Source: an uncultured Ignavibacteria bacterium (GTDB lineage Bacteria > Zixibacteria > MSB-5A5 > CAIYYT01). From it: DNA of 64,000 nt. The translations under genes were made by a program, and so were the position numbers. Numbering within the stretch: the first letter of the stretch is position 1; each line of letters begins with the position of its first letter. Below are positions 30,320-51,122 of the stretch, piece by piece. The notes below the pieces were generated by a model. It did not search any database. It was not told where the DNA came from and worked only from the letters and a program-made list of their open reading frames with translations. The stretch lies in contig CAZTYE010000013.1 of the NCBI GenBank assembly GCA_964617645.1, positions 3,956 to 67,955 on the forward strand. Direction: 5' to 3'.

Positions 30320-31228
30320 TTGCCGATGACGAATACTCGACGAGAATTGTTCAAATGGGCAGCCGTCGGCGCGGTAACCGCTGTTGCCGGGCGAGCCGAG
30401 GCCAAGGAAGAGGAATTCCCTCTCGATTGCGCGCAAACGTACGGCGTACTGGTTGATACGGTCGTCTGTATCGGCTGTCGCAAGTGCGAGTGGGCGTGCA
30501 ACAACGAGCACAAACTCTCGAATACCGATCTCAAGACATTTGAAGATCGCACGGTTTTCCGAAAGCATCGCCGGCCGACGGACCAGTCGTATACGGTGGT
30601 CAATGAGTTCCGCAATCCGGCCACTCAAAAGCCGTACACGATGAAGGTCCAGTGCATGCACTGCAACCACCCGGCCTGCGTGTCCGCCTGTATCGTCGGC
30701 GCCTTGACCAAGAGCAATTCCGGCTCGGTGGATTATGATGCCTGGAAATGTATCGGCTGCCGGTATTGCATGGTAGCCTGCCCGTTTCAAGTGCCGGCAT
30801 ACGAGTACAGCGAGGCATTCAAGCCGCGGGTGATGAAATGCACCTTCTGCGCCCACCGCTTGGCCGAAGGCAAAAAGCCGGCGTGTGTGGGCATCTGCCC
30901 CAATGAGGCGTTGACGTTCGGGACCCGGCAGGAATTAATCGAAATCGCCAAAGAGCGGATCAAGATCAAGCCGGATGTTTACTATGACCATGTCTACGGC
31001 GAAACGGAGGTCGGCGGCACCAGCTGGATGTACCTGGCGCCGGTCGAGTTCAAGCACACCGAGCTGCCGACTTTGGGCGAGAAGCCGATTCCCAAGCTAA
31101 CCGAGACGATTCAACACGGCATATTCAAGTCGTTCGTTCCGCCGCTGGCACTTTACGGCTTATTGGGGCTGGTCATGTACTCGCTGCGCGAGAAGGATGA
31201 GAAGGAGTCGCACAATGAGCACGCATGA
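30320..31228 (+). CDS. Tat-exported 4Fe-4S dicluster protein (HybA/HmcB-like)
   Basis: Twin-arginine TRRELFK; Cys clusters CIGCRKCEWAC, CMHCNHPACVSAC, CIGCRYCMVACP and KCTFC...PACVGICP; EVGGTSWMYL; C-terminal TM anchor. Confidence 0.9.
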   Translation: MPMTNTRRELFKWAAVGAVTAVAGRAEAKEEEFPLDCAQTYGVLVDTVVCIGCRKCEWACNNEHKLSNTDLKTFEDRTVFRKHRRPTDQSYTVVNEFRNPATQKPYTMKVQCMHCNHPACVSACIVGALTKSNSGSVDYDAWKCIGCRYCMVACPFQVPAYEYSEAFKPRVMKCTFCAHRLAEGKKPACVGICPNEALTFGTRQELIEIAKERIKIKPDVYYDHVYGETEVGGTSWMYLAPVEFKHTELPTLGEKPIPKLTETIQHGIFKSFVPPLALYGLLGLVMYSLREKDEKESHNEHA

Positions 31229-32468
31229 AATTCCGGCCCCGATTCAGCGCGTTCCGTTTTTCACCAAGGGCACGATTATCCTCTCGATCTTGGCCGGACT
31301 CGGGATTTCCGCCTACATCTATAGATTGCTGTTCGGACTGGAAGCCGCGACCAACCTCGACGATCAATTCCCGTGGGGCATCTGGATTGCGATTGATGTC
31401 GCTTCGGGTGTGGCGCTGGCGGCCGGCGGATTTACCAGCGCGGCACTCGCCGACATTTTTCACAAAGACAAATACCACGTGATCACGCGGCCGGCGCTTT
31501 TGACGGCGATGCTGGGATACACGTTTGTCGTGATCGGCCTGCTTGCGGATCTGGGACGCTATTATAATGTGTGGCACCCGATGCTTCCGAGCATGTGGCA
31601 AGGCAATTCGGTGCTGTTCGAAGTCGGCATGTGCGTGATGGTTTATCTGACCGTGCTGTATGTCGAGTTCCTGCCGATCGTGGCGGAGCGATTTATCGGT
31701 CGTGTCAAACTCCCCGGAATATTGCGCGTTTTCAATAGTCTGGTCGACGGCTGGCTGCGAGTCTGCAAGCAGTTCCTCGGGCGATTCCTGTCGCTGTTCA
31801 TCATTGCCGGTGTGGTGCTCTCGTGTTTGCATCAGTCGTCGCTGGGAACGTTGATGGTGATCGCGCCGACAAAAATGCATCCCCTCTGGTGGTCGCCGAT
31901 CTCACCGCTGATGTTCCTGTTGTCGGCGATTGCCGTCGGTTTTCCGATGGTGATTTTTGAATCACTGGTGGCGTCGCGCTCGTTCAAACTCAAGCCGGAG
32001 ATTCCGGTGCTTTCGTCGATCGCGGCCTACACGCCGATTCTTCTGGGGGTCTACCTCGCCGTGAAGATAGGCGATTTGACGATGCGCGATGCGTGGCCGT
32101 TCCTGTTCGAGGGTTCGCTGCAGTCGTTCATGTTCATGATCGAAATCGGCCTGGGCGTGATCGCGCCGCTGTTGATGCTCGCCAATCGCAAGCTGCGACA
32201 AACGGCGAAGGGGCTGTTCATCTCGGCGTCGCTGGTGATCTTTGGCGTGCTGCTCAATCGCATCAATGTCTTTCTTGTCGCCTACGAACCGCTGTATCCG
32301 CAAACGACATACTTCCCTTCGGTGTTCGAGATCATGGTGACGGTCGGACTGGTCTGCGCATTGGTGCTGGTGTATCGGTTCCTGGTGCTCCATTTCCCGG
32401 TGATTGCGCAACCGGCTCATGAAGTGAAGGCCGACAATCCGTCGCCGGCAATCGTAAAGACGGCTTAG
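31215..32468 (+). CDS. NrfD/PsrC-family membrane subunit (HybB/HmcC-like)
   Basis: TNLDDQFPWGIWIAIDV..GVALAAGGF, DLGRYYN.WHP, SVLFEV..C and LHQSSLG; about 10 TM segments. Confidence 0.9.
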   Translation: MSTHEIPAPIQRVPFFTKGTIILSILAGLGISAYIYRLLFGLEAATNLDDQFPWGIWIAIDVASGVALAAGGFTSAALADIFHKDKYHVITRPALLTAMLGYTFVVIGLLADLGRYYNVWHPMLPSMWQGNSVLFEVGMCVMVYLTVLYVEFLPIVAERFIGRVKLPGILRVFNSLVDGWLRVCKQFLGRFLSLFIIAGVVLSCLHQSSLGTLMVIAPTKMHPLWWSPISPLMFLLSAIAVGFPMVIFESLVASRSFKLKPEIPVLSSIAAYTPILLGVYLAVKIGDLTMRDAWPFLFEGSLQSFMFMIEIGLGVIAPLLMLANRKLRQTAKGLFISASLVIFGVLLNRINVFLVAYEPLYPQTTYFPSVFEIMVTVGLVCALVLVYRFLVLHFPVIAQPAHEVKADNPSPAIVKTA

Positions 32469-32483
32469 GTGGAGGTGGATGAA

Positions 32484-33602
32484 GTGAAGAAATATACATC
32501 GATTGCATTCAATGTCCTCGTAGCGTTGTTGCTCAGCGGATCGATATTCGCGCAGAGTAAGCCGAAGGCGGTCAATTGCAGCGAGTGCCATACGTGCCCG
32601 TCCCCGACAGTGGCGAACCCGTGTTTGAAAGCTTGTCCACGAGCGCAGGCGGTTCACCAAGCAACCAAGCACGAAGTCGCCGATGCGCCGGACTCGATGC
32701 TGCTCGGCGACATCGCGGATTTGTATCAACCGGTGCATTTCAATCACAAGCTGCATGCGTCGATGGCGCAAATGGGCGGTGACTGCGCGACGTGCCATCA
32801 CTTCAGCCCACCGGGAAGAATCCCGCCCTGCAAGGAGTGCCATAGCCCGTCCGGTGAATCGAGCGATCTGCGCAAGCCGAACCTCAAAGGCGCCTATCAC
32901 CGCCAGTGCCTGGCCTGTCACCGCGAATGGAGCCATGAAACGCAGTGCGTGCTTTGTCATATTCCTTCGGAAGGCGGCGCGATTGCGCAGTCGGCCAAGG
33001 ATCCGACGGATATCATCGGCACACCGCACCCGAAAATCGTCGCGCCGGATAAGCGGCTGTACACGACGCCGTACAAGCCGGGACCGATGGTGACTTTTTA
33101 TCATGAAGAACACATTCAGCTTTTCAATCTGCGCTGCGTCGATTGTCACAAGCAGGAGAACTGCGGCTCGTGTCATGACATGAAGCGCGAAGTGAAAATC
33201 GCCAAGACGCAGGAAGAAGTGCACGCGATCTGCAACGATTGCCACAACAAGGACGCCTGCGCCAAGTGCCACGACACCAAGGAACGTTCGGCGTTTTCGC
33301 ATGCCGACACCGGTTGGCCGCTCAGTCGTTTCCATCAGAAGCTTGAGTGCCGCGCGTGTCATCCGACGGGCAAGAAGATTGCGCGCTTGAACAATAACTG
33401 CTCCGGTTGTCACGGCGGTTGGAACCAGGCGAATTTCAAGCATGCAATTGTCGGTTTGCAGCTTGACGAAGTGCATATCGAGCTGGAGTGCAGCGACTGT
33501 CACGAAAACAAGAATTTCGCGGCGACGCCGAAGTGCGACGGTTGTCATGATGACGGCCGCACGCACAAGGATGCGCCGCCGGGCGAATTGATCCGCAAGT
33601 AG
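32484..33602 (+). CDS. Multiheme cytochrome c, cytochrome c3-like, 13 CxxCH
   Basis: Signal peptide; 13 CxxCH counted; c3-type V.F.H..H and AYHRQCLACH; GGAGG RBS before GTG at 32484. Confidence 0.9.
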   Translation: MKKYTSIAFNVLVALLLSGSIFAQSKPKAVNCSECHTCPSPTVANPCLKACPRAQAVHQATKHEVADAPDSMLLGDIADLYQPVHFNHKLHASMAQMGGDCATCHHFSPPGRIPPCKECHSPSGESSDLRKPNLKGAYHRQCLACHREWSHETQCVLCHIPSEGGAIAQSAKDPTDIIGTPHPKIVAPDKRLYTTPYKPGPMVTFYHEEHIQLFNLRCVDCHKQENCGSCHDMKREVKIAKTQEEVHAICNDCHNKDACAKCHDTKERSAFSHADTGWPLSRFHQKLECRACHPTGKKIARLNNNCSGCHGGWNQANFKHAIVGLQLDEVHIELECSDCHENKNFAATPKCDGCHDDGRTHKDAPPGELIRK

Positions 33603-37906: not shown

Positions 37907-38746
37907 GTGATTACACGCATCAAAATCGGGTTGTTGACGCTGCTGGCGGGAATCGCGTTTTACTACTTTGGTCGGGGCTTGCCGGATGGGAGGGCGGATT
38001 TCGAGAAGGGGCATCCGCATGAAGAGGTCAATTGCGAGTTGTGCCACAAGTTCGACGGCAACATGCGCGGCTTTGGCGTGAGCGTGGCGCGCAACGCGAT
38101 GTGCCTGACTTGTCACACGACGGCCAAGCTTCATGATGTCAAACTGCGTTCGTTCCACGCGGCGACGACACCCAATTGCAACGAGTGCCACAGTTTTCAC
38201 GCGCCGAGCCGGGTGATTGCCAACGGCGACACGACGACGATGGCGATCGTGGCTGGCCTCGACGAGATTTGCGCGGACTGTCACAACAATCCGGGTCGGC
38301 CGGTGGTGTCGGTCGGTCATGAGGCGGCGGCGCGATTAATTCACGGATCGCTCGATCCGGCCTGGGTGGCGCAGCCGTCGCAATACTGTATGGCGTGTCA
38401 CGACGCGGACGCCGCACCGCGTGGTGATGCCAATACCGGGCAGGTGACGCCGAGGATCCACACGGTCGGCGGCCACGCGATTGGAATTCCATTGATTCCC
38501 GGCTTTCAGCGGGCGGGTGCGGACAATAAGATCCGCGATCAGATACCCGAGTTCGTCCGTACGATCAACGGAAATATCGAGTGCCTGACCTGCCATTCAC
38601 TGAGTTCGGGCAGCGCGTTCCTGCTGGTGACCGGGCACCAGAACGACTTGTGTAACGGCTGCCACAATGTCGATCCGAACATTCCAGAAACAAGGCCACC
38701 GGTCTTCACTCAGCGTTCAGCGAACGGCGACCGGGTGCGTCCGTAA
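37907..38746 (+). CDS. Multiheme cytochrome c, 7 CxxCH, N-terminal membrane anchor or signal
   Basis: CELCH, CLTCH, CNECH, CADCH, CMACH, CLTCH, CNGCH; the last pair has the doubled-CXXCH pattern. Confidence 0.85.
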   Translation: MITRIKIGLLTLLAGIAFYYFGRGLPDGRADFEKGHPHEEVNCELCHKFDGNMRGFGVSVARNAMCLTCHTTAKLHDVKLRSFHAATTPNCNECHSFHAPSRVIANGDTTTMAIVAGLDEICADCHNNPGRPVVSVGHEAAARLIHGSLDPAWVAQPSQYCMACHDADAAPRGDANTGQVTPRIHTVGGHAIGIPLIPGFQRAGADNKIRDQIPEFVRTINGNIECLTCHSLSSGSAFLLVTGHQNDLCNGCHNVDPNIPETRPPVFTQRSANGDRVRP

Positions 38747-38892
38747 AAACGACCACGATATCGACCTTTTCGATAGATTTTAATGTAGACCTTACTGGTC
38801 GATTCTGCATTTTGTAACCCACTGTCGGGCTGTCAGATAGTTTTCTCAAGATAGTAGACATTAACTTTCTTCAGGGGAATCGAAAATATCCC

Positions 38893-38928
38893 TTGACAAG
38901 CAGACTAATCTTGTTACCTTTTTCACAA
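38893..38928 (+). promoter_or_regulatory. Sigma70 promoter with extended -10 overlapped by a Rex-type operator
   Basis: TTGACA (38893-38898), 16-nt spacer with TG, TACCTT; operator TTGTTACCTTTTTCACAA at 38911-38928. Confidence 0.7.
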
Positions 38929-38969
38929 TCTTAGACGCGCCGCTTAGAGCTATGGCGTTGTGAGGCAAT

Positions 38970-39494
38970 ATGAAACGGATAATGACCGTACTTGTGATAG
39001 GGGCAATCTTCTGGGCGGCTACCGAATCCTTCGCCGGCGAAATTTCCAAAGACAGCACTTTTAGATCCGACACACTGACGGCGCCGCTTCCGGGCTGGAA
39101 AGTCGGAATCGACTCGACCAATATCAAGGATACAACCTCGTTTTTTGTTATCGAGACCCGACACAAGGTTTTCGGGAATTTCCGGCAGGTCGACACGGTC
39201 AGGTTTGGAAGGCAATTCGAGTTGGGTGAAGGCGAAGAAGTGGCGGTGGTGATGGCCTTCAATCCGCACTTGGCGATTTCGACGAAGGGCACGGCGATTG
39301 CGTTTTCGGACACGCTCTGGAATCCGGCGGCGCGAGTGCGCGTTCTCGACAAGAGCGGAAAGGTCATCCAAGAAGGCTGGGCGTTTCACTACACCGACGC
39401 GCCGCACTACCCGCGCAACCACCTGTTTGGATTTCGATTGCTGGCCTACAAAGTAGACTCACAGTTTATCATTCCCCCGGTTGAGAAGAAGTAG
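38970..39494 (+). CDS. Secreted hypothetical protein, possibly ResB-subdomain/DUF2155-like
   Basis: Signal peptide; FNP...NPAARVRV...EGWAF segment recalls a periplasmic region of ResB-type proteins (by memory, not aligned); first gene after the promoter. Confidence 0.55.
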   Translation: MKRIMTVLVIGAIFWAATESFAGEISKDSTFRSDTLTAPLPGWKVGIDSTNIKDTTSFFVIETRHKVFGNFRQVDTVRFGRQFELGEGEEVAVVMAFNPHLAISTKGTAIAFSDTLWNPAARVRVLDKSGKVIQEGWAFHYTDAPHYPRNHLFGFRLLAYKVDSQFIIPPVEKK

Positions 39495-39509: not shown

Positions 39510-42500
39510 GTGCGACACGGACGATGCTTTGGGATCATTGCACACATCATTTTGGGGGTCGGCGCTTTTCTGGCATTTTCATCGTCCGCTCAGGCGGTCA
39601 AGACTTGCTACGATTGCCACCAGAATCTTAAAGCGGCCTTCGAAGCAAAAAAGGTCGTTCACAAGCCGGTAAAGGACAACGACTGCGAGTCGTGTCACAA
39701 ACGTCATGGGTTCGCCAATACTCTAATTCTCGTCGACAATAGTTCGGAACTGTGTTTCACATGCCATGCGGACTTGAAAGAGAAATTCGCGGTTGGGACG
39801 AAGCACGCGCCGATGGAAGTCGGCAAATGCTGGGATTGCCACGAACCGCACGCCGCCGACAAGAAGGGGCTGCTTCGCAATTACGAAGGCGTGATCGACG
39901 ATCCCGGCTCCTGCCTGGCGTGCCACGGCAAGGAACTGGAATCGGCGCTTGACGGAACAGTTCCCCATCCGCCGTTTACGAAACTGGATTGCGCGGCCTG
40001 TCATGATCCACATAACAGCGAGCACGCGGGATTGCTCAAGAAGGACGTCAGTGCGCTTTGCGCCGATTGCCACGATCCGAAGGACAAGAAGACGCTGGCG
40101 GCACATGAAGGCAAAGCGATCGCCGGCTTGGAGTGCGCCGAATGTCACAGCGGCCATTCGACGAACAGCGCGGGGCTGATGTCAGGAAATTCGCATGCGC
40201 CTTTTTCCGAAGGACAATGCGATGTTTGTCATGCGCCGGTGACCGATCCGGCGGCGATTCAGTTCACCGATGGCAAGAAACCGGGAGAACTTTGCGGCGA
40301 ATGCCACAGCGAACAGGTCGACGCAACGGCGTTGGCGATTCCGCATGCCGCGGTGGAGAAGGTCAACTGCGATGCCTGCCACCAGCCGCATTCATCGCGG
40401 CACGGCAAGCTACTGAAGGAAAATCAGGCCAACTTGTGCGGCGAATGCCATGACGATCTTCTGACCGGCGACAAGATGGTTGCGCACGCGCCGGCGATTC
40501 TCGGAGACTGCTCCGGCTGTCATGAAGTTCACGGCTCGAATAAGGAGCATCTGCTCGCCGCAACGGATTCGAGTCTTTGCCTGGGATGCCATGGCGAATT
40601 CGCAGTAAAGCGGGATTCCGCCGAAGTCGTGCATCCCGCGATCGCCGACTGCAATGGTTGTCACGCTCCGCACGAGGGCCACACACAGGCGATCTTGCGC
40701 ACTTCACCGGAAGACGCCTGCCGCAAATGCCATGAACCGTCGGGCGCGGATCGCGCGGCAGAGTCGGTCCACCCGCCGTATCTCAGATCGGATTGCAGCG
40801 CTTGTCATAATTCCCACTTCGGCGACGAGGCGCATCTCGTTAAGGCCGGTGGGAACAAACTTTGCGTCAATTGCCATCCGGAAATCGGGAATCGAACAAC
40901 ATTGGCGGTTCAGCACGCGCCGGCGCAGGAAGATTGCCAAACCTGCCACAGGCCCCACACCGCCGGAAGTGATTTTCTCTTGGCAGCGCCCGAGGGTGAG
41001 TTGTGCGGCCAGTGCCACGACCGGGCCGATTTTAATGGCAACAAGACTTTCGTGCATACGCCGGTACTGAAGGGCGATTGCAGCGGTTGCCACAATCCGC
41101 ACGGCTCGATGAAGGAACATCTGGTCGCCGGTCGTGCGGTGCGGATGTATGTCAACGGGATTCCGATCAGTAAAACACCGGCCCTGGGTGACAAGATCGC
41201 CGACCTTTGCTTCACCTGCCACGATGACCTGAAAGAGAAATTCCGCCAAGGCGTACCGCATACGCCGGTCGAAAGCGGCGATTGCCAGGTATGCCATGAT
41301 CCGCACGGCGGCGATGTCTACGGCATGCTAAAGGACGAGCCGGCCAAGGTTTGCGGGACATGCCATACGATCGACGCGGATTTGGCGACGAAACATGAAA
41401 ACTACGATCTGACGGCCGCGAACTGCCTTGATTGTCACAATCCGCACACGGCTCCGGAAAAGGGACTGATGCGGGCGAACTTGCATCCGCCGTTCGCCGA
41501 AAAGTCTTGTGACGGCTGCCATGAGCGCGGTGCGGACGGCAAGGTTGTCATGGCGGGACCGGAAGCCGAGGTTTGCGGCACTTGTCACGAGGATTTGCTG
41601 GGCCTCGCGAGCAAGAAGTCGCAGCATGGGCCGTTTGCCGCCGGCGAATGCACGGCCTGCCATAGTCCTCATGCGGGCGACGACAAGAAGTTTCTGCTTC
41701 GCGCCGGTAATGATCTGTGCACTAACTGCCACTCCGACATTCATGAACTGGTGAATCAGCCGGTGCAGCACCGCCCGTTTGCGGATGGCGCCTGCGTTGA
41801 CTGCCACGGACCGCATGCGACGGACAATCCGGTATTGACGGTCAAGGCGAAGGAAGGATTCTGCACGAGTTGTCACGAAGACATCAAGAAGGAGCTGGCT
41901 TCCGGCGAAGTCCACGCGCCGACAAAGACCGGCGATTGCACCCAATGCCATCTGCCCCACGCCGGCGCCGCACCAATGCTTCTGGCGAAAGACAAACAAG
42001 CACTCTGCTCGGGATGTCATGATTACACTTCGGTGGCCGTGAAAACAGCGCATGGCGGGTTCGACATTTCCGGCGCCGACTGCCAGAATTGCCATGTCGC
42101 GCACGCCACGAAGCGCGGTGTCAAGGGGCTGCTGCTGCCGAACGCGCACGAGCCGTTCCGCAGCGGCACGTGCGACCAGTGCCACGCCGGGCAAGCGCCT
42201 CTACCGCTGGTTGCCGAGACCAAGGAGTTGTGTCTGACCTGCCACGACGACTTTGCAAAGCAACTTGCGCAGGCCGTGGTGCATGCGCCGATCCTGAGCG
42301 GTGATTGCACCGGTTGTCACGGCCCGCACGTCGGCTTCGGTAAGTCACTTCAGGTTCGCGAAGGATTCAAGGCCTGTGTCACCTGTCACGACTCGCGTGA
42401 GTTTTCCGGCAGCGTCAAACATCCGGTGGCGTTCGAAGATTGCGGCAACTGTCATGATCCGCATGCGGCGCCGAATAAGGGACTTCTAAATACGACGGAT

Positions 42501-42704
42501 ATACAAGGCTTGTGTCTCGGCTGTCATGAAGACGCCAAGAAGTCGCATTTTCATCCGATGGGCGATAGTGTCATTGATCCGCGCACCAAGACGCCGGTGA
42601 ACTGCGTCAGTTGCCACTCGGCACACTCATCCGACTGGCCATCGATGCTGGTTGCCGATAAAAACCGCAAGTTGTGTGTACTGTGCCACGACGTCAGCCA
42701 CTAA
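39510..42704 (+). CDS. Very large periplasmic multiheme cytochrome c, 42 CxxCH
   Basis: Sec signal ending AQA; 42 CxxCH counted, mostly as H.P...CxxCH.PH....LL......CxxCH paired repeats. Confidence 0.93.
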   Translation: MRHGRCFGIIAHIILGVGAFLAFSSSAQAVKTCYDCHQNLKAAFEAKKVVHKPVKDNDCESCHKRHGFANTLILVDNSSELCFTCHADLKEKFAVGTKHAPMEVGKCWDCHEPHAADKKGLLRNYEGVIDDPGSCLACHGKELESALDGTVPHPPFTKLDCAACHDPHNSEHAGLLKKDVSALCADCHDPKDKKTLAAHEGKAIAGLECAECHSGHSTNSAGLMSGNSHAPFSEGQCDVCHAPVTDPAAIQFTDGKKPGELCGECHSEQVDATALAIPHAAVEKVNCDACHQPHSSRHGKLLKENQANLCGECHDDLLTGDKMVAHAPAILGDCSGCHEVHGSNKEHLLAATDSSLCLGCHGEFAVKRDSAEVVHPAIADCNGCHAPHEGHTQAILRTSPEDACRKCHEPSGADRAAESVHPPYLRSDCSACHNSHFGDEAHLVKAGGNKLCVNCHPEIGNRTTLAVQHAPAQEDCQTCHRPHTAGSDFLLAAPEGELCGQCHDRADFNGNKTFVHTPVLKGDCSGCHNPHGSMKEHLVAGRAVRMYVNGIPISKTPALGDKIADLCFTCHDDLKEKFRQGVPHTPVESGDCQVCHDPHGGDVYGMLKDEPAKVCGTCHTIDADLATKHENYDLTAANCLDCHNPHTAPEKGLMRANLHPPFAEKSCDGCHERGADGKVVMAGPEAEVCGTCHEDLLGLASKKSQHGPFAAGECTACHSPHAGDDKKFLLRAGNDLCTNCHSDIHELVNQPVQHRPFADGACVDCHGPHATDNPVLTVKAKEGFCTSCHEDIKKELASGEVHAPTKTGDCTQCHLPHAGAAPMLLAKDKQALCSGCHDYTSVAVKTAHGGFDISGADCQNCHVAHATKRGVKGLLLPNAHEPFRSGTCDQCHAGQAPLPLVAETKELCLTCHDDFAKQLAQAVVHAPILSGDCTGCHGPHVGFGKSLQVREGFKACVTCHDSREFSGSVKHPVAFEDCGNCHDPHAAPNKGLLNTTDIQGLCLGCHEDAKKSHFHPMGDSVIDPRTKTPVNCVSCHSAHSSDWPSMLVADKNRKLCVLCHDVSH

Positions 42705-42723: not shown

Positions 42724-43611
42724 ATGATCAGGCACCGACTCTATGCTCCGATTCTTGCCGCGACGATCTTGTTCACTGCCGCATATGCGACGGCGTTGCA
42801 GCTCTACAAGAGCATCAAAGTACTCGACGGTGAGCGGCAATTGGTCAAGCCGACGCAGGTGGTTACGTCGCCCTCCGGCGCCCGCTATGCGGTTGTCGAC
42901 CAGTTTGCCAACCGAATTTATGTCTTCGACATTCCCGATCAACTGGTCTGGGAAGTCGGCACGCTGACGCCGCTGGTGCTGCCGACGTCGGCGTGTTTTG
43001 ACGGCGAAGACGCATTATTGTTCGCGGTGCAAAATCGCAATCAGGTTTATCGAACCCGCAGCGACGAACCGGACAAGTACGACAGCGTAACGACAATCAA
43101 GGACGGCGGAATCCGCAATATCGACGCCATCCGCCGGACGCCGGAGAACCAATATATCGTGCTTGATCGCAAGAATGGACGAGTCGCGCAATTCGATCAC
43201 AAGTGGCGATTCGTGCGCGTAGTCGCCGATCAGGGCCAGGGTCGAGGCAAGCTGTGGGCGCCGGTTGAAGTGGCGGTTTTGCTCGGCGGTGGTTTGGCAA
43301 TTTCGGATGCCGCGAATATGCCGCTGCAGATATTCTCCAGCCAGGGGAAATTCCTCAACTCTGCCGGCTGGAATAATCCGACGCAAGACCGTCAATGGAA
43401 GGGCGGCGCTGTCACGGTGGGATTGGACGAAACGATTTGGGTTGCCGATATGAGTGCGCGCCGGTGGCGGCGTTTCGACCGCGCCGGAGTGGAAGTCAGC
43501 AGTGAGAGCTTCACCCTGCCGCCGATGCATCCGCTGAGCGCGGCATTCACCGCCGATGGCCGGTTAATCGTGGTGGATGAGTTAGGGTCGCTGCACATCT
43601 TCGAACCATAA
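42724..43611 (+). CDS. NHL-repeat beta-propeller protein
   Basis: Signal peptide; repeats PTQVVTSPSG..YAVVD, GKLWAPVEVAV..GG.L.ISD, VTVGLDETIWVAD. Confidence 0.75.
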   Translation: MIRHRLYAPILAATILFTAAYATALQLYKSIKVLDGERQLVKPTQVVTSPSGARYAVVDQFANRIYVFDIPDQLVWEVGTLTPLVLPTSACFDGEDALLFAVQNRNQVYRTRSDEPDKYDSVTTIKDGGIRNIDAIRRTPENQYIVLDRKNGRVAQFDHKWRFVRVVADQGQGRGKLWAPVEVAVLLGGGLAISDAANMPLQIFSSQGKFLNSAGWNNPTQDRQWKGGAVTVGLDETIWVADMSARRWRRFDRAGVEVSSESFTLPPMHPLSAAFTADGRLIVVDELGSLHIFEP

Positions 43612-43625: not shown

Positions 43626-44579
43626 GTGAAACGCATCGCGTCGTTGCTGATCGGAATCACTCTCTGGCCGCTCGTTAACGTGGTCGCGGGCGAATGGCAC
43701 ACCGAGGGCAACCTGCGCTGCGCGGATTGCCATCTATCGCATGCTTCGGGCGAAGAGATCGGCGCCTATGAGGGGCCCTACCTGATCCTGCTCAAGAAAG
43801 ACTCGATCAACGAATTGTGCCTGTCTTGCCACGACGGCAGCGATCTGGCCGCGCCAGATGTGCTGACGCCGGTTGAGATGTACGCCGCGACGAGCGCCGG
43901 CGAGAGCACTGCGGGGCATCTGCAACTTCCCAGCTATGATCACGCTGGCGGGCACAATCTGGGTCTGATCGCGCCGACGCCGCTGCAGTCCGCCGGCAGC
44001 GCCATAGAACTCAGTTGCATCAGTTGTCACGCGGCGCACGGCAATGCCAATTACCGCAATCTGTCGGAAGATCCGGCACGCATCGGCAGCAATCTTTCCG
44101 TTGTTGACGGCATTCAAGTGTTCACCGATCAGAAGCCGTCGCGGCCGCCAAATTCGGTGTCAACGATTGCGGCTTATCAGCGCGACAATGTCGGTTACGT
44201 TTCCGGCCTCGACGAGTGGTGCACATCCTGTCACAATCAGTTGGAGAATAACGCACCGGCTTCAAGTCCTGCGCATTTTGCGGGTCACCCGTCCGGCGTG
44301 GCGCTCAATCAGTTTGTCAGCGAGTATCATGCGGATCCGCAACATTGGATCGGCGGAAGTGGCGAGGGATTTACGCTCGATGGGATTAGCCGGTTGCCGA
44401 TCCTGTCGCCGAGCGCGACGAGTTTCATCGCCGCCCGCACGCCGCAGACATCCGATCGCGTGAGTTGTATCAGTTGCCACCGCGGACACGGCGGCGATCG
44501 GCGAAAGAATCTCCGGTGGCCGGCGGTTGAAGGCGGCGCCACCGCGATGGCCGGATGCCAACAGTGCCATAACAAGTAG
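43626..44579 (+). CDS. OmcS-like hexaheme cytochrome c (paralog 1)
   Basis: 6 CxxCH; mature WHTEGNLRCADCHLSH; GGHNL, YRNL, GLDEWCTSCH and VSCISCHRGH in OmcS order. Confidence 0.75.
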   Translation: MKRIASLLIGITLWPLVNVVAGEWHTEGNLRCADCHLSHASGEEIGAYEGPYLILLKKDSINELCLSCHDGSDLAAPDVLTPVEMYAATSAGESTAGHLQLPSYDHAGGHNLGLIAPTPLQSAGSAIELSCISCHAAHGNANYRNLSEDPARIGSNLSVVDGIQVFTDQKPSRPPNSVSTIAAYQRDNVGYVSGLDEWCTSCHNQLENNAPASSPAHFAGHPSGVALNQFVSEYHADPQHWIGGSGEGFTLDGISRLPILSPSATSFIAARTPQTSDRVSCISCHRGHGGDRRKNLRWPAVEGGATAMAGCQQCHNK

Positions 44580-44586: not shown

Positions 44587-45681
44587 ATGATGAGTCAGCG
44601 CACAACAGGTGTGAGTTTAGGAGTAGCGTCGCTGTTAATCGCGGGGGCAGCGTTGCTGCTCGCCGATGGCGGCCGGTTCCGCAATTCACCACACGGCTCT
44701 GCCGAAAGCGGCGTGTGGCGAACCGGAGATTATCCTCGCGGAAGCTGCCTGCAATGTCATGGCGCGCACCAAGGAGGCACGCCGGAACCGTTCGGACTAT
44801 TCCAGCCCAATAGCAATGAACTCTGCCTCGGCGCCTCGATGGGCGGCTGCCATGCCGATCAACCGAGCGGTGCGACGGCGGGCTATCCGGCGCAAGAGAC
44901 GGACCGGATGCCGATCGGATCGAGCGACGCCGGTTATTTCGAGTTCAATTCCGGCGGCACACGGATTCCCGGAGTCAGTAATCATGTCCGCTGGCCGGGT
45001 CGTCAGGTTTGGAAGGATCTCGCGTATTCACCGCATAATACCGACCCCGATATGCCGCTTAAGGATTTCTTCGGCGACGGCGACTGCGGAAATTGCCACA
45101 ACATACACGGTGGCGCGGGATCGCACGATTTACTTGATACGACCTACAGCAGCATCGTAGGTTCGCAATTCGGCGCGTGGCCGGACAACTACGAATTGTG
45201 TTTCTCCTGCCACTCGCAATTCGGCCCGGTCGGGATGAACGAAAGCGGCAAACGCATTCGCGACTACTACGACCGCTCGATTAATCCGAGCAACCGCGCG
45301 GGCCATGGTATCGGCGACGGCGGCGGATACGTGCCGTCCGGCGCGCGGCTGTCGTGCTCGGATTGCCACAATCCGCATGGATCGCGTGGGAGTCAAGCAG
45401 GGGGTCCGAACGCGTTCTTGCTCAGCGATCAGCGCCCGGGCTGGCACGGACTCACCGATATTCGCAACGACAACGCTCAGGTTCGCCGATTTTGCTTCGG
45501 TTGCCATGTATCCTCCGATAACCAAGCGGGGGGAACTATCCATGGACTCAATCTGGAGCGGCTTCCCGACGAAGTCGCGGCGCATGAATTCATGGGCACG
45601 ACACATTGCTACGACTGTCACGGACGCGACTATTCGACGTCGAACGGCTTCAATGTTCATAACCCAGCGGAGGGTGAATAA
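44587..45681 (+). CDS. Multiheme cytochrome c, 6 CxxCH plus one CX7CH
   Basis: CLQCH, CLGASMGGCH, CGNCH, CFSCH, CSDCH, CFGCH, CYDCH; hydrophobic N-terminus. Confidence 0.85.
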   Translation: MMSQRTTGVSLGVASLLIAGAALLLADGGRFRNSPHGSAESGVWRTGDYPRGSCLQCHGAHQGGTPEPFGLFQPNSNELCLGASMGGCHADQPSGATAGYPAQETDRMPIGSSDAGYFEFNSGGTRIPGVSNHVRWPGRQVWKDLAYSPHNTDPDMPLKDFFGDGDCGNCHNIHGGAGSHDLLDTTYSSIVGSQFGAWPDNYELCFSCHSQFGPVGMNESGKRIRDYYDRSINPSNRAGHGIGDGGGYVPSGARLSCSDCHNPHGSRGSQAGGPNAFLLSDQRPGWHGLTDIRNDNAQVRRFCFGCHVSSDNQAGGTIHGLNLERLPDEVAAHEFMGTTHCYDCHGRDYSTSNGFNVHNPAEGE

Positions 45682-47381
45682 TGTTGCGGGTCGTATTGGT
45701 GCCGGCGCTTCTGACCATTCTGGCCTGCGACGTTGACGCCGATCGGCTGTACGGGAATCTCAATTTGCTGGGAGAGCACTCGCGACAAGCCGGGGCCGTT
45801 GCTTTCAGCGACAACTCCTCGCAGGCAACGCTCACGCTTAACTACGAAGACGCTCTTTTCGTAAAAAACCGAATGCGGCTCGGACTTCAGGTTTCGCGAC
45901 GCGACTATCCGAATTCGCCGCAGCGGGACCTGAGGCCGATTTTTACGCTCGACCTCAAGAGCTACGGTTATGCACTGAATCTGAGCTACTCCCCGTACCG
46001 GCGGCTGACGACAGACGCGATCGGCGCGAGCACGTACTATTTGTATTCGCGTGATTGGCGCTCCAACCTGGCCCTCAACTACGATCGCTACCCGCCCGTG
46101 AACATCACCTACAACCGGACGCGAAAATTCGACCGCCAGACCCAGCGCCGCTTCGATAGCTCCGGCGAGACGTTTTTGATCGACACCCGCCACGCGGTCG
46201 GTGGCGTTGCGGTGCGCGGGTCTTATGGCCGGGTAACGAGCGAGAATTTTCTGATCGGCGGCTCGAATTCGGTTTCGGAAAACGTCGCGGCGGCAGCGAC
46301 TCTAACCAAGAATTACGACGGCATCGGCTACCTGAACGCGCTCTATTCGTACTATGCCTCGGAGATCGACCGCCGGTCGTTGGCGGTGCGCAATCGCACG
46401 GAGTTTTCGGCGCACACGATCAACGCCCTGTTGTCTTCCGACCGGTTTTATGGACTGACCGCGACGACTACCTATTCCGGGCGCTGGGCGGAGTCACAAA
46501 CGAGCACAATTCGCGCCCAAAACGACAATCACAACGCTACGGCGCAGTTGTCGTTCCTGCCCCTATCGTATTTATCGTTCGATGTCGCGAAATCGTACCA
46601 AACCACCGAAGAAGGCGGCCCGCGGCAAACGGTAGAATTCGTCAGCATCTCCGGCTCCGCATCGCGTTATCTGCGGCAAGGCGTCGACACGCGGTTGGGC
46701 GCCACCCGGACGTTTTTCCAGAAATCAAACAAGTCGCTGGAGAGCGGCGAGGGCGGTTCGGGAGCTTATAATTACGACAACATCTATGCTTCAGTCGGAC
46801 TGACGCCGCTGAATTATGTCCGTACCTATTTCGACGTCTCGGTAGCGCACGATTCAAAGCCGATCTTGAAAACCCAGCGGTATCAGGTCTTTCGTTCTTT
46901 GAATGCGCAGCTTCAACTCAGCCGCCGCATCGAGAGCCGCATCGGCTTTACCGCGGTTTATCAGGGCGCGAACTTGAATTTTGACCAGAGTATCTCGCGA
47001 AACTACAACCTCGGGCTGACGTGGATTCCAACCGGCAATCTTAGCCTGAACGCAAACTACATTCGGACGGAAAGCGCGACCGACATCGCGCTGAGCACCG
47101 ATTCGTGGAACGGCTACGCGTCGTACTCATTCCGGCGCGCTTTCACGCTATTCGTCAACGGCGTTTGGCAGGAACAAAAGACGTCGGCGATATCGCCGGC
47201 GCTGCTACCGTCGGAAGTCAATCGCACTTCGCGGCCGCGGTCGATCAATAGCCAGATTCTGATTTACCTGACGCCGTCAATTACACTCACCGGCGGATAC
47301 TTGTACTCCCTGGTTGAAGTGCTGGGCGGATCGTACACCTTGATCGAGTCCTATCAGTTATCCTTGAATTTTCGGATTTAG
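45681..47381 (+). CDS. Outer-membrane beta-barrel protein (porin of a porin-cytochrome or secretion system)
   Basis: Signal-like N-terminus; alternating amphipathic strands rich in Y/S/T/N; terminal strand SYQLSLNFRI; TAATG coupling to the upstream cytochrome. Confidence 0.7.
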   Translation: MLRVVLVPALLTILACDVDADRLYGNLNLLGEHSRQAGAVAFSDNSSQATLTLNYEDALFVKNRMRLGLQVSRRDYPNSPQRDLRPIFTLDLKSYGYALNLSYSPYRRLTTDAIGASTYYLYSRDWRSNLALNYDRYPPVNITYNRTRKFDRQTQRRFDSSGETFLIDTRHAVGGVAVRGSYGRVTSENFLIGGSNSVSENVAAAATLTKNYDGIGYLNALYSYYASEIDRRSLAVRNRTEFSAHTINALLSSDRFYGLTATTTYSGRWAESQTSTIRAQNDNHNATAQLSFLPLSYLSFDVAKSYQTTEEGGPRQTVEFVSISGSASRYLRQGVDTRLGATRTFFQKSNKSLESGEGGSGAYNYDNIYASVGLTPLNYVRTYFDVSVAHDSKPILKTQRYQVFRSLNAQLQLSRRIESRIGFTAVYQGANLNFDQSISRNYNLGLTWIPTGNLSLNANYIRTESATDIALSTDSWNGYASYSFRRAFTLFVNGVWQEQKTSAISPALLPSEVNRTSRPRSINSQILIYLTPSITLTGGYLYSLVEVLGGSYTLIESYQLSLNFRI

Positions 47382-47396: not shown

Positions 47397-47981
47397 ATGA
47401 AATCACTGACCCGAATCACACTGCTTTTGACTTTGCTGCCGCTGCTGTCTTGCGGCAGTTATCGGGCGTACACCAATCCCGAAGCCGACTTTGGGTTCTA
47501 CGAGCGCGTCGGTGTCATCCCCTTCGCCAATCTTACCAACGACCGCAATGCGTCGGAGAAGGTGACTTCGGCGTTCGTGATCGAGCTCCTCATCGGGGAC
47601 GCGCTGGAAGTGGCGCCGATGGGCGACGTCTACAAGGCGGCGCGCGCGGTACTTAAAGACGAAAAGACGAATCTGCCCGATCAGTTGACGGGCGAGGAAG
47701 CGCGCGCCCTCGGCGAAGCGGCGCAAGTCCAGGCGCTCTTTGTCGGCGCGGTCCGCGATTACGGCATGGTGCGCTCGGGACAAGAGGAGTTTCCGCTGGT
47801 GTCGGTCAGCGTGCGCTTGATCGACTGCGGCACCGGCAAGGTGGTTTGGACGCACGAAGTGACGCGCAAGGGTGGGCCGAAATTCCCGATCTTCTCGTTC
47901 GGCGAGACGCATACGCTCGGTGACATGACCGCCAAGGTTTGCCGCGAGGTGGCACGAGATTTCCTCGGTAAGGTGCGATAG
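47397..47981 (+). CDS. Lipoprotein, DUF799/GNA1162 (CsgG/PelC/TolB_N-like fold)
   Basis: Lipobox LLS-C; RVGVIPFANLT...ALGEAAQVQALFVGAVRDYG...VSVSVRLID..TGKVVW. Confidence 0.7.
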   Translation: MKSLTRITLLLTLLPLLSCGSYRAYTNPEADFGFYERVGVIPFANLTNDRNASEKVTSAFVIELLIGDALEVAPMGDVYKAARAVLKDEKTNLPDQLTGEEARALGEAAQVQALFVGAVRDYGMVRSGQEEFPLVSVSVRLIDCGTGKVVWTHEVTRKGGPKFPIFSFGETHTLGDMTAKVCREVARDFLGKVR

Positions 47982-47983
47982 CC

Positions 47984-48568
47984 ATGCGTTCGGCGGCGAT
48001 TTTTGTTGTGGTAGCGGTTGTGGCGCTCGCGATGTTGGCCTGCAGCCCGGGAATGGTCAGCAAGCGCTCGGCACGAATCGAGCTGCCGCAGAAGCCCCGC
48101 GTGGCGGTGCTTCCCTTCGAGAATTATTCCGGTGAGGAAGGCGCCGCGACGCGCATTACGGATTACTTCGTTACGCTGATGACGGCCAGCCCGGACTTTG
48201 AACTGATCGAATTCGGCAGTTCATACGAGGCGATGCGCCGACTGCGGATCCGCTCATCGAATTCGATGTCGAGCGAGCAAATCGACAGCCTGGCGGCGAT
48301 TCTGGGCGCCGACGTGCTGTTTTCAGGCACGGTGGTAGAATACAATACTGTCGACAACTCGTATCTCGGCAAAGTCCCGCGCGTGGCGTTCAACGCACGT
48401 GCCCTGGCGACGCGCGAACGGCGCACAGTTTGGTCGGCGGCGGTTAGCGGCCGCGGCGACAAAGGCGAGTTTCTTTTCGGAATTGGCGTAATTCGATCCG
48501 CGGAGAAGCTGTCGGAAAAGCTGGTTGAAGCGGCGGTAAGAGAGTTCGCGGATGAAATTCGCAATTGA
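47984..48568 (+). CDS. Lipoprotein, second DUF799/CsgG/PelC-like paralog
   Basis: Lipobox MLA-C; RVAVLPFENYS...LGADVLFSGTVVEY...VAFNARAL....RTVWSA. Confidence 0.7.
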   Translation: MRSAAIFVVVAVVALAMLACSPGMVSKRSARIELPQKPRVAVLPFENYSGEEGAATRITDYFVTLMTASPDFELIEFGSSYEAMRRLRIRSSNSMSSEQIDSLAAILGADVLFSGTVVEYNTVDNSYLGKVPRVAFNARALATRERRTVWSAAVSGRGDKGEFLFGIGVIRSAEKLSEKLVEAAVREFADEIRN

Positions 48569-49532
48569 TCGCCGGCTGCTACTGCTCGCTATTCTGGTGG
48601 GAGTTACTCTCAGCAGTGTCGCGGTCCTTGCCGAACACCCGGCGCAGCGGATTTCGATAGCCGCGATCGGCGATCAAGACGCCACCGGCAAACAATTGCG
48701 CTCGCCGGTGTCGATTCACTTTGATCGCTACGGCAACGAGGTGTTTGTCGTCGACCCGGGCGGAAAAAAGGTGGTGATCTTCGACCCCGACCTCAACCCC
48801 CGCTTCGAGTTCCAGCATCGGGTGCCGTCGCTTCAGGGCGGACAACTCGAGCCGGGAGAACCCAAGCGTCTCGTGACCAATCGGCACGGCGAGATTCTCC
48901 TGATCGATAATGTCGCGGATTTCATCGACATCCTTGACTTCCGCGGCAGACCCGTTGATCGCATTTATCCCAATCGGCTCCTGGGCGACACGACGCTCAA
49001 AATTCGGGCAGACCTGATCGCTACGGATGAACGGGACAATGTTTATGTATCGATCGACGGAGACCTTCAGGCGGTGCTGGTGCTTGACGGCAATTTGCGG
49101 CTCAAGCGCCGCTTCGGGCAGAAAGGCGACCGGCCGGAAGACTTCAATACAGTAGTTGGGCTTTACGCCAGCGAGGGCAAAATCTACATCGCCGATGTAT
49201 ATGGCGAACCGGCAATTAAGGTCTACGACACCCTCGGTACTTACCTGTTTGGGTTTGCCCGCCATGAGATCGACCCCGGTGATCTTTCGATGGCGCAAGG
49301 CATTGCGGTGCACCGCGACACAGCCGGAATCCAGACGATTTGGGTCACCGATGCTCTGCGGCAAGTCATAAAAGTCTACTCAGACAGTGGAGTTTACATC
49401 GCGACCGTCGGTGGCTTTGGCGAAAAGCCAGGAGAGTTTATGTATCCTTCCGGAATCGCGGTGTCGGAGACCGGCTCGTTCTATATTGTGGAGCGTGGAT
49501 CGGCCCGAATTCAGCGTTTCGACTACCGCTAA
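48552..49532 (+). CDS. NHL-repeat beta-propeller protein
   Basis: LRSPVSIHFD..GNEVFVVD; FGQKGDRPEDF; GGFGEKPGEFMYPSGIAVSETGSFYIVERGSARIQRF. Confidence 0.85.
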   Translation: MKFAIDRRLLLLAILVGVTLSSVAVLAEHPAQRISIAAIGDQDATGKQLRSPVSIHFDRYGNEVFVVDPGGKKVVIFDPDLNPRFEFQHRVPSLQGGQLEPGEPKRLVTNRHGEILLIDNVADFIDILDFRGRPVDRIYPNRLLGDTTLKIRADLIATDERDNVYVSIDGDLQAVLVLDGNLRLKRRFGQKGDRPEDFNTVVGLYASEGKIYIADVYGEPAIKVYDTLGTYLFGFARHEIDPGDLSMAQGIAVHRDTAGIQTIWVTDALRQVIKVYSDSGVYIATVGGFGEKPGEFMYPSGIAVSETGSFYIVERGSARIQRFDYR

Positions 49533-49640: not shown

Positions 49641-49717
49641 ACTTTTGAAGCGCTGAAAGCCTTCATATAAGGAACGAGCCGAATGCACCTGCGAAGAGCC
49701 AAATCGACAAACAGGAT

Positions 49718-49735
49718 TTGTGAAGTTTTTCACAA
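49718..49735. promoter_or_regulatory. Perfect Rex-type operator
   Basis: TTGTGAA-GTTT-TTCACAA. Confidence 0.8.
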
Positions 49736-49952
49736 TCACGACAGTCTTTGGGGACAATCGGCCGAGTTAAAGATCGCCAGAACTCAGCCTCTATTTACAT
49801 CTGATCAAAGTCAAATTAGCTCGAATGAACAATTGATGAAAGGAGTGATGCCAGATCACCGACGCGGATCGCGAGAATCTGCGATCACAAAAGACGGGCT
49901 GAACGTTCACAAGTACTTTCACCTTAATTCAACCACTAAGGTAGGTTCTACA

Positions 49953-51032
49953 ATGAAGAAGCTCACCTTGCTTGCTTTTGCCATGGTGTTCGCGCTTGTT
50001 GTCGCGGCGATGGCGGGCGACTATCATTCCGGCGCGAATCTGAATTGCGCGGAATGTCATGTGATGCACTATAGCCAGACCCATGGCTACAACAGCAATG
50101 GCGGCGGGATCACCGTCGACCTGGGCAACGCAGGCCCGTATCATTACTTGCTGCGCAACGAAATCAACGATCTCTGCCTGACTTGCCACGATGGCCAAAC
50201 ATTCGCGCCGGACGTTTTTGAAGTCGGTACTGGCGCTCCGGCAAACGGCCGTCTCGCCGGCGCTCTGAATCGTGATAACGTTTCGCCGTACTTTGATGCT
50301 ACCGGCCACACCCTCGGCTCGACCGACGATGCCCCGGGTGGCACTTGGGACAATCCGGACGGCCTTAACTGCACGAACTGCCACACCCAGCACGGCCGCG
50401 GCGGCTCGTGGGGTGGCGTGTCGTACAGCCTTTATCGCAATGCGAACATCTTCATCAACGGCACCCCGACAACCCCGCTGATGACCTATGCCATCGGGAC
50501 CAATGATCTCACTCGCGACATCTTTGAGCGTTCGGCGACTTACGGCGGCACGCACTATGACTTGCTGAACGTCGACTACAATGAGCCGGATCCGACGCAG
50601 TCTGGATACGGTCGTTTCTGCGGCCAGTGCCACACCAATTTCCATGGAACCGTTGGTTCCGCGGAGATCGGCGGCACGGGTACGCCGGCCAGCGAATTCC
50701 TGCGTCACCCCACCGCCGGCGCCAATATTGGAGCGCTTGGTGGCGGGCACTCAAGCCTGACCCGCAAGTATGACGACATGCTCTATCGTCTCAAGGTCAT
50801 GAGCCCGACCGGTAACTGGGGAACGTGGGGCGTTGCGTTCGGCGGAACCTCGACGGTCTCCAATGCTCCGACCGATCATACACCGTCTTGCATGACCTGC
50901 CACAAGGCGCACGGCACGACCCGCGCCTTTGGTCTGATCTGGGCCACGGGCACGACTCCGTACGGTGAAAACGGCGACGGCACCCGCTACGATCAGCAGT
51001 GCGGCCAGTGTCACGCGCAGGTCGCCTTCTAA
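49953..51032 (+). CDS. OmcS-like hexaheme cytochrome c, likely the major subunit (paralog 2)
   Basis: ATG at 49953 after AAGGTAGGT; signal peptide; YHSGANLNCAECHVMH; 6 CxxCH; APGG...LNCTNCH..HG, FCGQCHTNFH, RHP and SCMTCHKAHG; own promoter and terminator. Confidence 0.8.
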   Translation: MKKLTLLAFAMVFALVVAAMAGDYHSGANLNCAECHVMHYSQTHGYNSNGGGITVDLGNAGPYHYLLRNEINDLCLTCHDGQTFAPDVFEVGTGAPANGRLAGALNRDNVSPYFDATGHTLGSTDDAPGGTWDNPDGLNCTNCHTQHGRGGSWGGVSYSLYRNANIFINGTPTTPLMTYAIGTNDLTRDIFERSATYGGTHYDLLNVDYNEPDPTQSGYGRFCGQCHTNFHGTVGSAEIGGTGTPASEFLRHPTAGANIGALGGGHSSLTRKYDDMLYRLKVMSPTGNWGTWGVAFGGTSTVSNAPTDHTPSCMTCHKAHGTTRAFGLIWATGTTPYGENGDGTRYDQQCGQCHAQVAF

Positions 51033-51067
51033 TTCAGAAGTCACGCCTGTTCATAGTCTGCAATTGA

Positions 51068-51091: not shown

Positions 51092-51122
51092 CGTTCTTGC
51101 TAATGCTAATCGGGAGCATTCA

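Follow-up and report, generated by a model that had tools for sequence, protein, structure and literature searches.

A single-chain form of the OscI and OscJ cytochromes with 42 hemes, and its candidate role as a periplasmic heme wire

The window analyzed here is a stretch of 64,000 nucleotides from an uncultured bacterium of the GTDB lineage Zixibacteria (contig CAZTYE010000013.1, assembly GCA_964617645.1), and our subject is a gene within it that encodes a c-type cytochrome with 42 hemes (39510..42704, + strand). The encoded protein has 1064 amino acids (aa), about 136 kDa with hemes, and is a fused homolog of OscI and OscJ, two large cytochromes of Geobacter. Sequence comparison identifies it as the single-chain form of this pair. 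We posit, at a little better than even confidence, that it acts as a periplasmic heme wire linking inner-membrane donors to an outer-membrane conduit of the OmcS type.

Fused and split forms of the family

Full-length tblastn and blastp alignments match the protein to pairs of adjacent cytochromes, including those of Geobacter sp. AOG1 and Anaeromyxobacter oryzisoli, and at full length it shares about 30-34% identity with the pair of Geobacter sp. AOG1. The irregular heme spacings of the split proteins, which lie after hemes 8 and 25 in the 26-heme member, (8,28) and (25,28), and after hemes 8 and 14 in the 16-heme member, (8,28) and (14,30), coincide exactly with those of window hemes 1-26 and 27-42, where the anomalies fall at hemes 8, 25, 34 (=26+8) and 40 (=26+14). 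GSU2495 of G. sulfurreducens, a protein of ~70 kDa with 26 hemes, is conserved in Geobacter (bioRxiv 10.1101/2025.11.06.686851; PMC2996986). GSU2495 and GSU2494 are now named oscI and oscJ and are given as periplasmic members of the omcS-companion operon in PMC13194489, which cites Shen et al. 2025. The link from the Geobacter sp. AOG1 pair to GSU2495/GSU2494 is drawn from the published heme count and the gene order, not from direct alignment. The original prediction, which had been made from the DNA letters, had proposed a comparison with the large cytochromes next to Geobacter omcS, and it is this comparison that identifies the window protein as a fused OscI-OscJ homolog.

For a survey of loci, one genome per species was scanned and open reading frames (ORFs) were taken from the 80 best loci. 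A single 42-heme ORF is present in 22 of the 80, and an adjacent pair of a 26-heme and a 16-heme ORF in 47. Hosts of the split form are Geobacter sp. AOG1, Anaeromyxobacter oryzisoli, Desulfuromonadales, Nitrospirota, Desulfobulbaceae and many Acidobacteriota. Its first protein stops 4-6 residues past heme 26, a singlet outside the pairing of the other hemes, and its second protein has a signal peptide of its own and the mature N-terminus K(F/L)KLKPGAxGKxC. In the window, the OscI-like part comprises hemes 1-26 in blocks of 9 + 17 (39597..41522, +; a separate protein of ~650 aa in split-form genomes) and the OscJ-like part hemes 27-42 in blocks of 9 + 7 (41574..42701, +; a separate protein of ~390-440 aa, with its own signal peptide, when split). 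The fusion joint between them, ERGADGKVVMAGPEAEV (17 aa; 41523..41573, +), stands where split forms have the stop codon of OscI and the signal peptide of OscJ, and it is similar to the N-terminus of mature OscJ. OscI and OscJ are two polypeptides, each with a signal peptide; the window holds one ORF without an internal signal peptide, and we therefore class its product as a fused variant of the OscI/OscJ orthogroup.

Neighbor-joining trees of the two half-proteins are congruent. The fused forms make up one large clade, which includes the window protein, and at least three further cases amid split forms (L028; L034, sister to the split L078; and L013/L018/L027), with joints of 16 to 27 residues. 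The fusion thus appears to have arisen at least four times, an approximate number since the trees carry no support values. By the Rosetta-stone argument, the recurrent joining of the same two ends indicates that OscI and OscJ work end to end.

Repetitive genes misassemble easily, and one survey protein, P0080 (rotamase plus 26-heme cytochrome), does resemble merged ORFs. It is nevertheless very improbable that an assembly or frame error joined two genes into the 42-heme ORF itself, or that this ORF encodes a decaying repeat protein. Uninterrupted 42-heme ORFs without an internal signal peptide occur in 22 independent species-level genomes and 68 protein clusters, the 42 motifs and the distal His are invariant, and the window gene has a good ribosome-binding site and an operon-like position. 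P0080, taken as a fusion of a prolyl isomerase with the 26-heme protein, would have hinted at inner-membrane anchoring. We rejected it because the internal signal peptide is kept; it probably represents two merged ORFs.

A large protein search returned about 70 full-length relatives of 986-1100 aa with 33-53% identity, labeled as Zixibacteria/GN15, the Fibrobacterota-Chlorobiota-Bacteroidota (FCB) group, Gemmatimonadaceae and Krumholzibacteria. Exactly 42 motifs are found in 68 of the 70 full-length clusters, and the irregular spacings after hemes 8, 25, 34 and 40 are shared. The number of 42 (or 26+16) hemes is invariant across phyla at an identity of about 30%. An exact-sequence look-up of the window protein found no entry on record. 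Related giant cytochromes show other fixed counts, namely 52 hemes in 1629 aa, 38, 35 and 28 (P0072-P0075, P0095-P0120; locus L065), and such separate length classes suggest several wire 'sizes'.

Sequence anatomy, fold and heme ligation

The ORF begins with GTG, ends with a stop codon and has a GGAGG 6 nt 5' of the start. It encodes exactly 42 CxxCH motifs in 1064 aa, just as had been counted before, while shuffles of the protein's own residues give 0.6 on average and 5 at most by chance. A motif scan of the whole 1064 aa found no CxxxCH, CxxxxCH or CxxCK. Of the 85 Cys residues, 84 lie inside heme motifs and one in the signal peptide, and there are 24.6 aa per heme. The predicted Sec (type I) signal peptide, MRHGRCFGIIAHIILGVGAFLAFSSSAQA (39510..39596, +), is cut between SSSAQA and VKT and has no lipobox; the same arrangement (AxA, the cut, then AK(T/K)C, without lipobox) is found in 66 of 69 family members. 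Heme 1 follows the mature N-terminus after 2-4 residues, and 4-8 residues remain between heme 42 and the C-terminus. No sorting signal (lipobox, type IX secretion system (T9SS) domain or other sorting domain) is found in the protein, whose predicted default destination is the periplasm.

According to Pfam, the protein contains the doubled CXXCH domain PF09699 in 20 stretches (617.7 bits against a cut-off of 20.6, E 1e-190), and it also belongs to the doubled-CXXCH proteins by TIGR01905 (569.7 bits against 25.2). The cut-off of the DmsE/MtrA decaheme model TIGR03508 (NCBIfam) is exceeded, at 407.6 against 192.2, only as the sum of 8 stretches. Membership of the DmsE/MtrA family (ten hemes, about 300-330 aa) was rejected, as the protein has 42 hemes and 1064 aa. 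An AlphaFold2 model built on 69 relatives has a mean predicted local distance difference test score (pLDDT) of 86.3 and a predicted template modeling (TM) score of 0.67, and places a helix at residues 2-23, within the signal peptide. The local fold is MtrA-like: MtrA (PDB 6R2Q chain A) is the sole convincing fold match (233 columns, TM score of 0.57 normalized to MtrA, root-mean-square deviation of 4.9 A) and the stronger of two PDB sequence matches (E 1e-16). PDB 28pb chain A, a recent 278-aa 'Cytochrome c', matches residues 906-1039 (hemes 36-41) with an E value of 9e-7, and could, among solved structures, be more closely related to the OscJ-like part than MtrA is. Shared with MtrA/DmsE are the doubled-CXXCH blocks, the bis-His hemes, the minimal peptide and an MtrB-like barrel encoded nearby. 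The window protein differs in having 42 hemes instead of 10 and three singlet-heme junctions, and its gene does not adjoin the barrel gene, which lies 3 kb downstream.

When 69 full-length relatives are aligned, the 42 CxxCH motifs prove invariant throughout, as do 38 His outside the motifs, and 5 more such His are 78-99% conserved. No conserved Met ligand is present in this alignment, the highest value being 67% for M1017. Assignment of the distal His, suggested as a check in the original prediction, accordingly yields 42-43 conserved non-motif His for 42 hemes. All 42 hemes appear to be bis-His ligated, with one spare His near the C-terminal tip. The 42 conserved distal His, together with the lack of CxxCK and of a conserved Met, rule out a catalytic heme. 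Multiheme enzymes (NrfA, HAO, octaheme reductases) were rejected on the absence of CxxCK and the presence of at least 42 conserved distal His, and an OmcS-type nanowire subunit on a score of 15 bits against an OmcS-like profile. The c7 polymers GSU1996 (12 hemes) and GSU0592 are peptide-minimized 'nanowires' of repeated small units with a similar ratio of residues per heme. They were rejected as well, as the window protein is built of diheme pairs instead of triheme c7 domains, and no His-Met heme is conserved. The earlier proposal of an intramolecular wire is supported by the 20 doubled-CXXCH domains, the 42-43 conserved His, the hemes at both termini and the structural match to MtrA only.

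Two types of heme alternate along the chain with a spacing of 23/25 residues, 'B' with LCxxCH and an HxP ~13 residues on, and 'A' with CxxCHxPH, which agrees with the regular heme pairs described in the original prediction. A module, H....(I/L)...CxxCH..H...GL...N.H.PF....CD.CH, had been reported to interrupt them three times, and both the sequence and a self-comparison recover it at hemes (7)-8-9, (24)-25-26 and (33)-34-35. The first junction module lies at residues 199-241 (40104..40232, +; hemes 8-9), the second at residues 629-671 (41394..41522, +; hemes 25-26) and the third at residues 848-892 (42051..42185, +; hemes 34-35). Each module contains one singlet heme, 9, 26 or 35, by which the pair register is shifted into blocks of 9+17+9+7 hemes, and the singlet heme 26 of the second module ends OscI in the split forms. 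The self-comparison, which the original prediction had also called for, was averaged over 23 family members and shows the triheme junctions as mutual best matches (7~24~33, 8~25~34, 9~26~35 and 10~27). Additional irregular spacings follow heme 4 (28 residues, in closer relatives only) and heme 40 (28-33 residues, in nearly all family members), and heme 42 is similar to the first heme of a junction.

The proposed segmental duplication holds for the three junction modules and, weakly, for a candidate 9-heme supermodule formed by blocks 1-9, 18-26 and 27-35, which score 369-419 compared with 273-332 against a plain 8-heme block. Beyond the junctions, higher-order duplication is weakly resolved, largely because all pair units are alike. 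The main architectural event is instead the fusion of 26 and 16 hemes.

Conservation is highest at the N-terminal tip (0.65), followed by the C-terminal tip (0.54-0.60) and the junctions (0.51-0.58). The N-terminal tip (39597..39752, +) comprises hemes 1-2 and a beta-hairpin, modeled with strands at 63-66 and 71-74. The segment of heme 2 is the most conserved non-ligand segment of the protein, and the tip is a candidate electron entry or docking end. The C-terminal tip (42513..42701, +; residues 1002-1064, hemes 40-42) bears a conserved K(T/S)HxHPMG....DPRT motif, in which the conserved H1013 and H1015 as well as M1017 (67%) are found. With 43 conserved distal-type His for 42 hemes, one spare ligand is left over here, which could reach the heme of a partner, and the tip is a candidate electron exit or docking end.

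The heme-free insert noted in the original prediction was found where hemes 21 and 22 are spaced 43 residues apart. It measures 18 aa (AGRAVRMYVNGIPISKTP; 41127..41180, +; residues 540-557) and is modeled as a beta-hairpin of lower confidence. The insert is restricted to the closest ~50 clusters, and the remaining relatives have another insertion after heme 20 or none. Its conservation of 0.39 is among the lowest of all segments, and only L538, R542 and G550 are kept. Being clade-specific and poorly conserved, it has little to recommend it as a docking site, and this part of the original prediction is not supported.

Genomic neighborhood

The genes from 38970 to 49532 form an operon with intergenic gaps of -17 to 19 nt. 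The 42-heme gene is followed after 19 nt by a gene for an OscK-like NHL beta-propeller (42724..43611, +) and one for an OmcS-family hexaheme cytochrome of 317 aa (43626..44579, +), whose family profile matches OmcS (6ef8) over nearly the whole chain (E 1.5e-19). Next comes a hexaheme cytochrome that is not OmcS-like (44587..45681, +). The stop codon of its gene overlaps the start of a barrel gene, and it is a possible partner inserted in that barrel. The outer-membrane beta-barrel itself (45681..47381, +; 566 aa) has no Pfam hit, and its sequence profile found no match in PDB. MtrB was detected by fold search only, as the best PDB fold match (6r2q_B, E 4e-11, 8% identity) to a model with a pLDDT of 84.7 and ~28 antiparallel strands. 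Sequence relatives of the barrel number 15 in 5.8 billion proteins. Further downstream are two paralogous LpoB/CsgG/GNA1162-like lipoproteins of 194 aa each (47397..48568, +), which are homologous to the proteins at the OscF/OscG position in Geobacter sp. AOG1, a second, OscD-like NHL beta-propeller (48552..49532, +), and two more OmcS-family cytochromes (49683..52250, +), one with 6 hemes and one with 7 hemes and a lipobox (LTC).

This Zixibacteria-like genome thus encodes three OmcS-family proteins within the window (43626-44579, 49683-51032 and 51123-52250, all +). They are possible filament-forming subunits outside Desulfuromonadota, because the conserved CxxCHxxH His, the invariant H39 in the 317-aa protein, aligns with His16, the inter-subunit ligand of OmcS.

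In Geobacter sp. AOG1, the order is OmcS-like cytochrome, NHL protein, two large proteins, two LpoB-like lipoproteins, prolyl isomerase, 26-heme cytochrome, 16-heme cytochrome and NHL protein. The block GSU2500-GSU2493 (eight genes) always occurs alongside an OmcS-like hexaheme (bioRxiv 10.1101/2025.11.06.686851), and OscH, OscEFG and OscD have been proposed to fold, secrete and shape OmcS nanowires, according to PMC13194489, citing Shen et al. 2025. We found no established function for OscI/OscJ in the literature covered, which did not include the primary osc paper (Shen et al. 2025) and in which one paper only gave the two names. With an OmcS-like hexaheme, NHL propellers, OscF/G-type lipoproteins and a large outer-membrane protein nearby, the window cluster is of the osc type, and its neighbors are of the same kinds as in Geobacter (NHL propellers, LpoB-like lipoproteins and OmcS-family cytochromes). 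It differs from the Geobacter cluster in that the giant cytochrome is one polypeptide and stands ahead of the osc-type genes, in the absence of an OscH-type prolyl isomerase from the window, and in a barrel whose sequence shows no detectable similarity to the large proteins that Geobacter has at this position. In most of the 80 loci, the giant cytochrome has lipoproteins, NHL proteins and OmcS-like cytochromes beside it, and the OscH-type isomerase is present in 33 of 47 split and 5 of 22 fused loci. These neighbor counts are lower bounds, as many contigs are cut.

The 42-heme gene is immediately preceded by two clade-specific neighbors (37907..39494, +), which encode a heptaheme cytochrome whose N-terminal hydrophobic anchor looks uncleaved and a family-less secreted protein of 174 aa. 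They are found in 5 of the 22 fused loci and in the closest clade only; the heptaheme could be a membrane-anchored donor. A Cbc/NrfCD-type quinol module, made up of an Fe-S protein with a twin-arginine translocation signal, an NrfD-like membrane protein and a 13-heme cytochrome (30320..33602, +), is situated 6 kb upstream and represents a possible electron source.

Several other genes of the window deserve mention. Next to the cytochrome cluster, on its upstream side, a subtilase (peptidase S8; 35907-37696, +) is divided between two ORFs that overlap and correspond to positions 4-151 and 174-288 of the Pfam profile, owing to a frameshift, pseudogene formation or a sequencing error. A protease at this place recalls OzpA, which matures OmcZ in Geobacter. 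An LVIVD-repeat protein with a T9SS C-terminal sorting domain (33748-36015, +) and a 1109-aa protein with a terminal dockerin (26701-30030, +) are surface proteins that adjoin the electron-transfer cluster, and the Uet model, too, mentions an LVIVD protein. The gene for a TLC-type ATP/ADP transporter-like protein precedes one for a HEAT-repeat protein (18154-20974, +), which is unusual in a sediment bacterium that presumably lives freely. The remaining genes, among them those for Omp85, a SusC-like receptor, PBP1C with alpha-2-macroglobulin and a T9SS-sorted protein, are typical of a diderm FCB-like bacterium.

Proposed role, alternatives and implications

From these features we infer a periplasmic location, an extended global shape, a direction of electron flow and a set of partners for the 42-heme protein. 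After Sec export and heme attachment, the chain would fold into a thin, largely linear heme wire of about 36 nm if straight, with the three conserved triheme junctions as kinks or docking points. Its N-terminal tip, near the inner membrane, would receive electrons from a quinol-oxidizing cytochrome module or from small periplasmic cytochromes. The electrons would then hop along the 42 hemes to the C-terminal tip and pass to the conduit encoded downstream, consisting of the MtrB-like 28-strand barrel, the adjacent hexaheme and the OmcS-family cytochromes, and the NHL propellers and LpoB-like lipoproteins might serve as scaffold.

A typical periplasm is roughly 20-30 nm wide. In MtrA, 10 hemes extend over 80 A (PMC7198977), and at an analogous pitch 42 hemes would measure about 36 nm, 26 hemes 22 nm and 16 hemes 13 nm. 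Bridging of the periplasm by the 42-heme chain is plausible in view of the type I export signal without lipobox or sorting domain, of the invariant heme number, which suits a length constraint, and of the operon with its MtrB-like barrel and OmcS-like cytochromes. Several points weigh against the periplasmic wire as we propose it. A straight chain of 36 nm would be longer than the typical periplasm, so that the wire would have to be bent at the junctions or have its C-terminal part inside the barrel. The relatives examined do not keep the upstream Fe-S/NrfD/13-heme module in synteny with the family, and the module is therefore weak evidence for a dedicated donor. The periplasmic localization is predicted by signal-sequence logic only. 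Finally, a GSU2494 mutant is listed as wild-type on Fe(III) oxide in a table of PMC9248073 that cites Aklujkar 2013, and redundancy of the wire, or some other purpose of it, would be possible explanations.

This mutant phenotype would also fit a periplasmic electron reservoir, or capacitor, in which 42 low-potential hemes store charge and exchange it by diffusion without bridging the membranes. A soluble exported protein without an anchor and with one heme per 24.6 aa would suit such a function, and for large multiheme cytochromes, PCC3 among them, a role as capacitor has been discussed (PMC10734462). Storage does not obviously need an exact heme count, yet 42 (or 26+16) hemes are invariant across phyla. 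Conservation peaks at the tips and junctions, as for defined contacts, the recurrent end-to-end fusion keeps the order of the chain, and the gene is tightly coupled in an operon to parts of an outer-membrane conduit. We therefore argue from the invariant count and the conserved tips and junctions for a constraint on length over simple charge storage, and regard the reservoir as rather unlikely.

A wire in another place is the second alternative. The 16-heme C-terminal part might thread the MtrB-like barrel, or the whole protein might leave through an OscEFG-type channel as a monomeric ~36-nm nanowire; we give these variants a low probability. They would be in line with the ~28-strand barrel whose best fold match is MtrB and with the MtrA-like local fold of the cytochrome, as well as with the estimated lengths, since ~13 nm exceeds the thickness of a membrane and ~22 nm is near the width of the periplasm. 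The polarity would be that of MtrA, with the C-terminus outward (PMC7198977), large cytochromes of D. ferrophilus predicted to be periplasmic were found in the outer-membrane fraction (PMC9769857), and PMC13194489 ties the osc machinery to secretion. However, the gene translationally coupled to the barrel is that of the other hexaheme (44587-45681), a more usual candidate for the insert, the 42-heme protein has no lipobox, T9SS or other sorting signal, and oscI and oscJ are annotated as periplasmic in Geobacter (PMC13194489).

The periplasmic wire linking donors to an OmcS-type conduit remains our preferred reading. More speculatively, and in our opinion doubtful at present, the OscI+OscJ chain might be a fixed-length 'root cable' that wires the inner membrane to the base of an OmcS-type filament via the MtrB-like barrel. 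Of its two parts, the one with 26 hemes (~22 nm) would reach across the periplasm, the one with 16 (~13 nm) would traverse the outer membrane, and the invariant count would serve as a ruler for envelope width.

The doubled-CXXCH domain, the principle of an MtrA-like wire, the oscI/oscJ genes and the idea of a giant periplasm-spanning cytochrome are already known, the last from PCC3 (PMC10734462). PCC3, a periplasmic cytochrome of Gallionellaceae with 21-27 hemes, has been proposed to span the periplasm (PMC10734462). Compared by its description, it too is a giant periplasmic cytochrome, predicted to be linear, whose cluster also encodes a porin and extracellular multiheme cytochromes, but the heme number is different, and an inner-membrane protein that is conserved accompanies PCC3 where the window has NHL proteins, LpoB-like lipoproteins and OmcS-like subunits. 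The Uet cluster of Tenderiales (UetA-J; bioRxiv 10.1101/2022.05.06.490989) also combines a barrel, two NHL propellers and multiheme cytochromes predicted to form a linear wire. Its largest cytochrome, however, has 11 hemes and is predicted to be extracellular, and its triheme c7 proteins, cupredoxin and prolyl isomerase were not found in the window. A full-text literature search on 42-heme or giant cytochromes returned nothing relevant, and we found no description in the literature of the single-chain 42-heme form, of recurrent fusion at the singlet heme 26, of a strict 42 (= 26+16) heme count across phyla, or, for Zixibacteria-like genomes, of an osc-type cluster that combines OmcS-family genes with an MtrB-like barrel.

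How electrons pass over the roughly 25-nm periplasm to nanowires is debated, with small diffusing Ppc-type cytochromes set against fixed wires. The 42-heme family is a concrete candidate for a fixed wire, given its constant heme count, its genetic tie to OmcS-like subunits and an MtrB-like barrel, and its one- and two-piece forms. For structural work, the fused protein offers a single-chain construct of a complex that otherwise needs co-expression. If true, the 'root cable' would answer how cytochrome nanowires are charged and anchored. The finding is of value mainly for a prediction open to testing, namely that OscI and OscJ together make a single continuous wire. From the fusions that recur in nature, the two are expected to dock end to end, heme 26 to heme 27, which can be tested directly in Geobacter.

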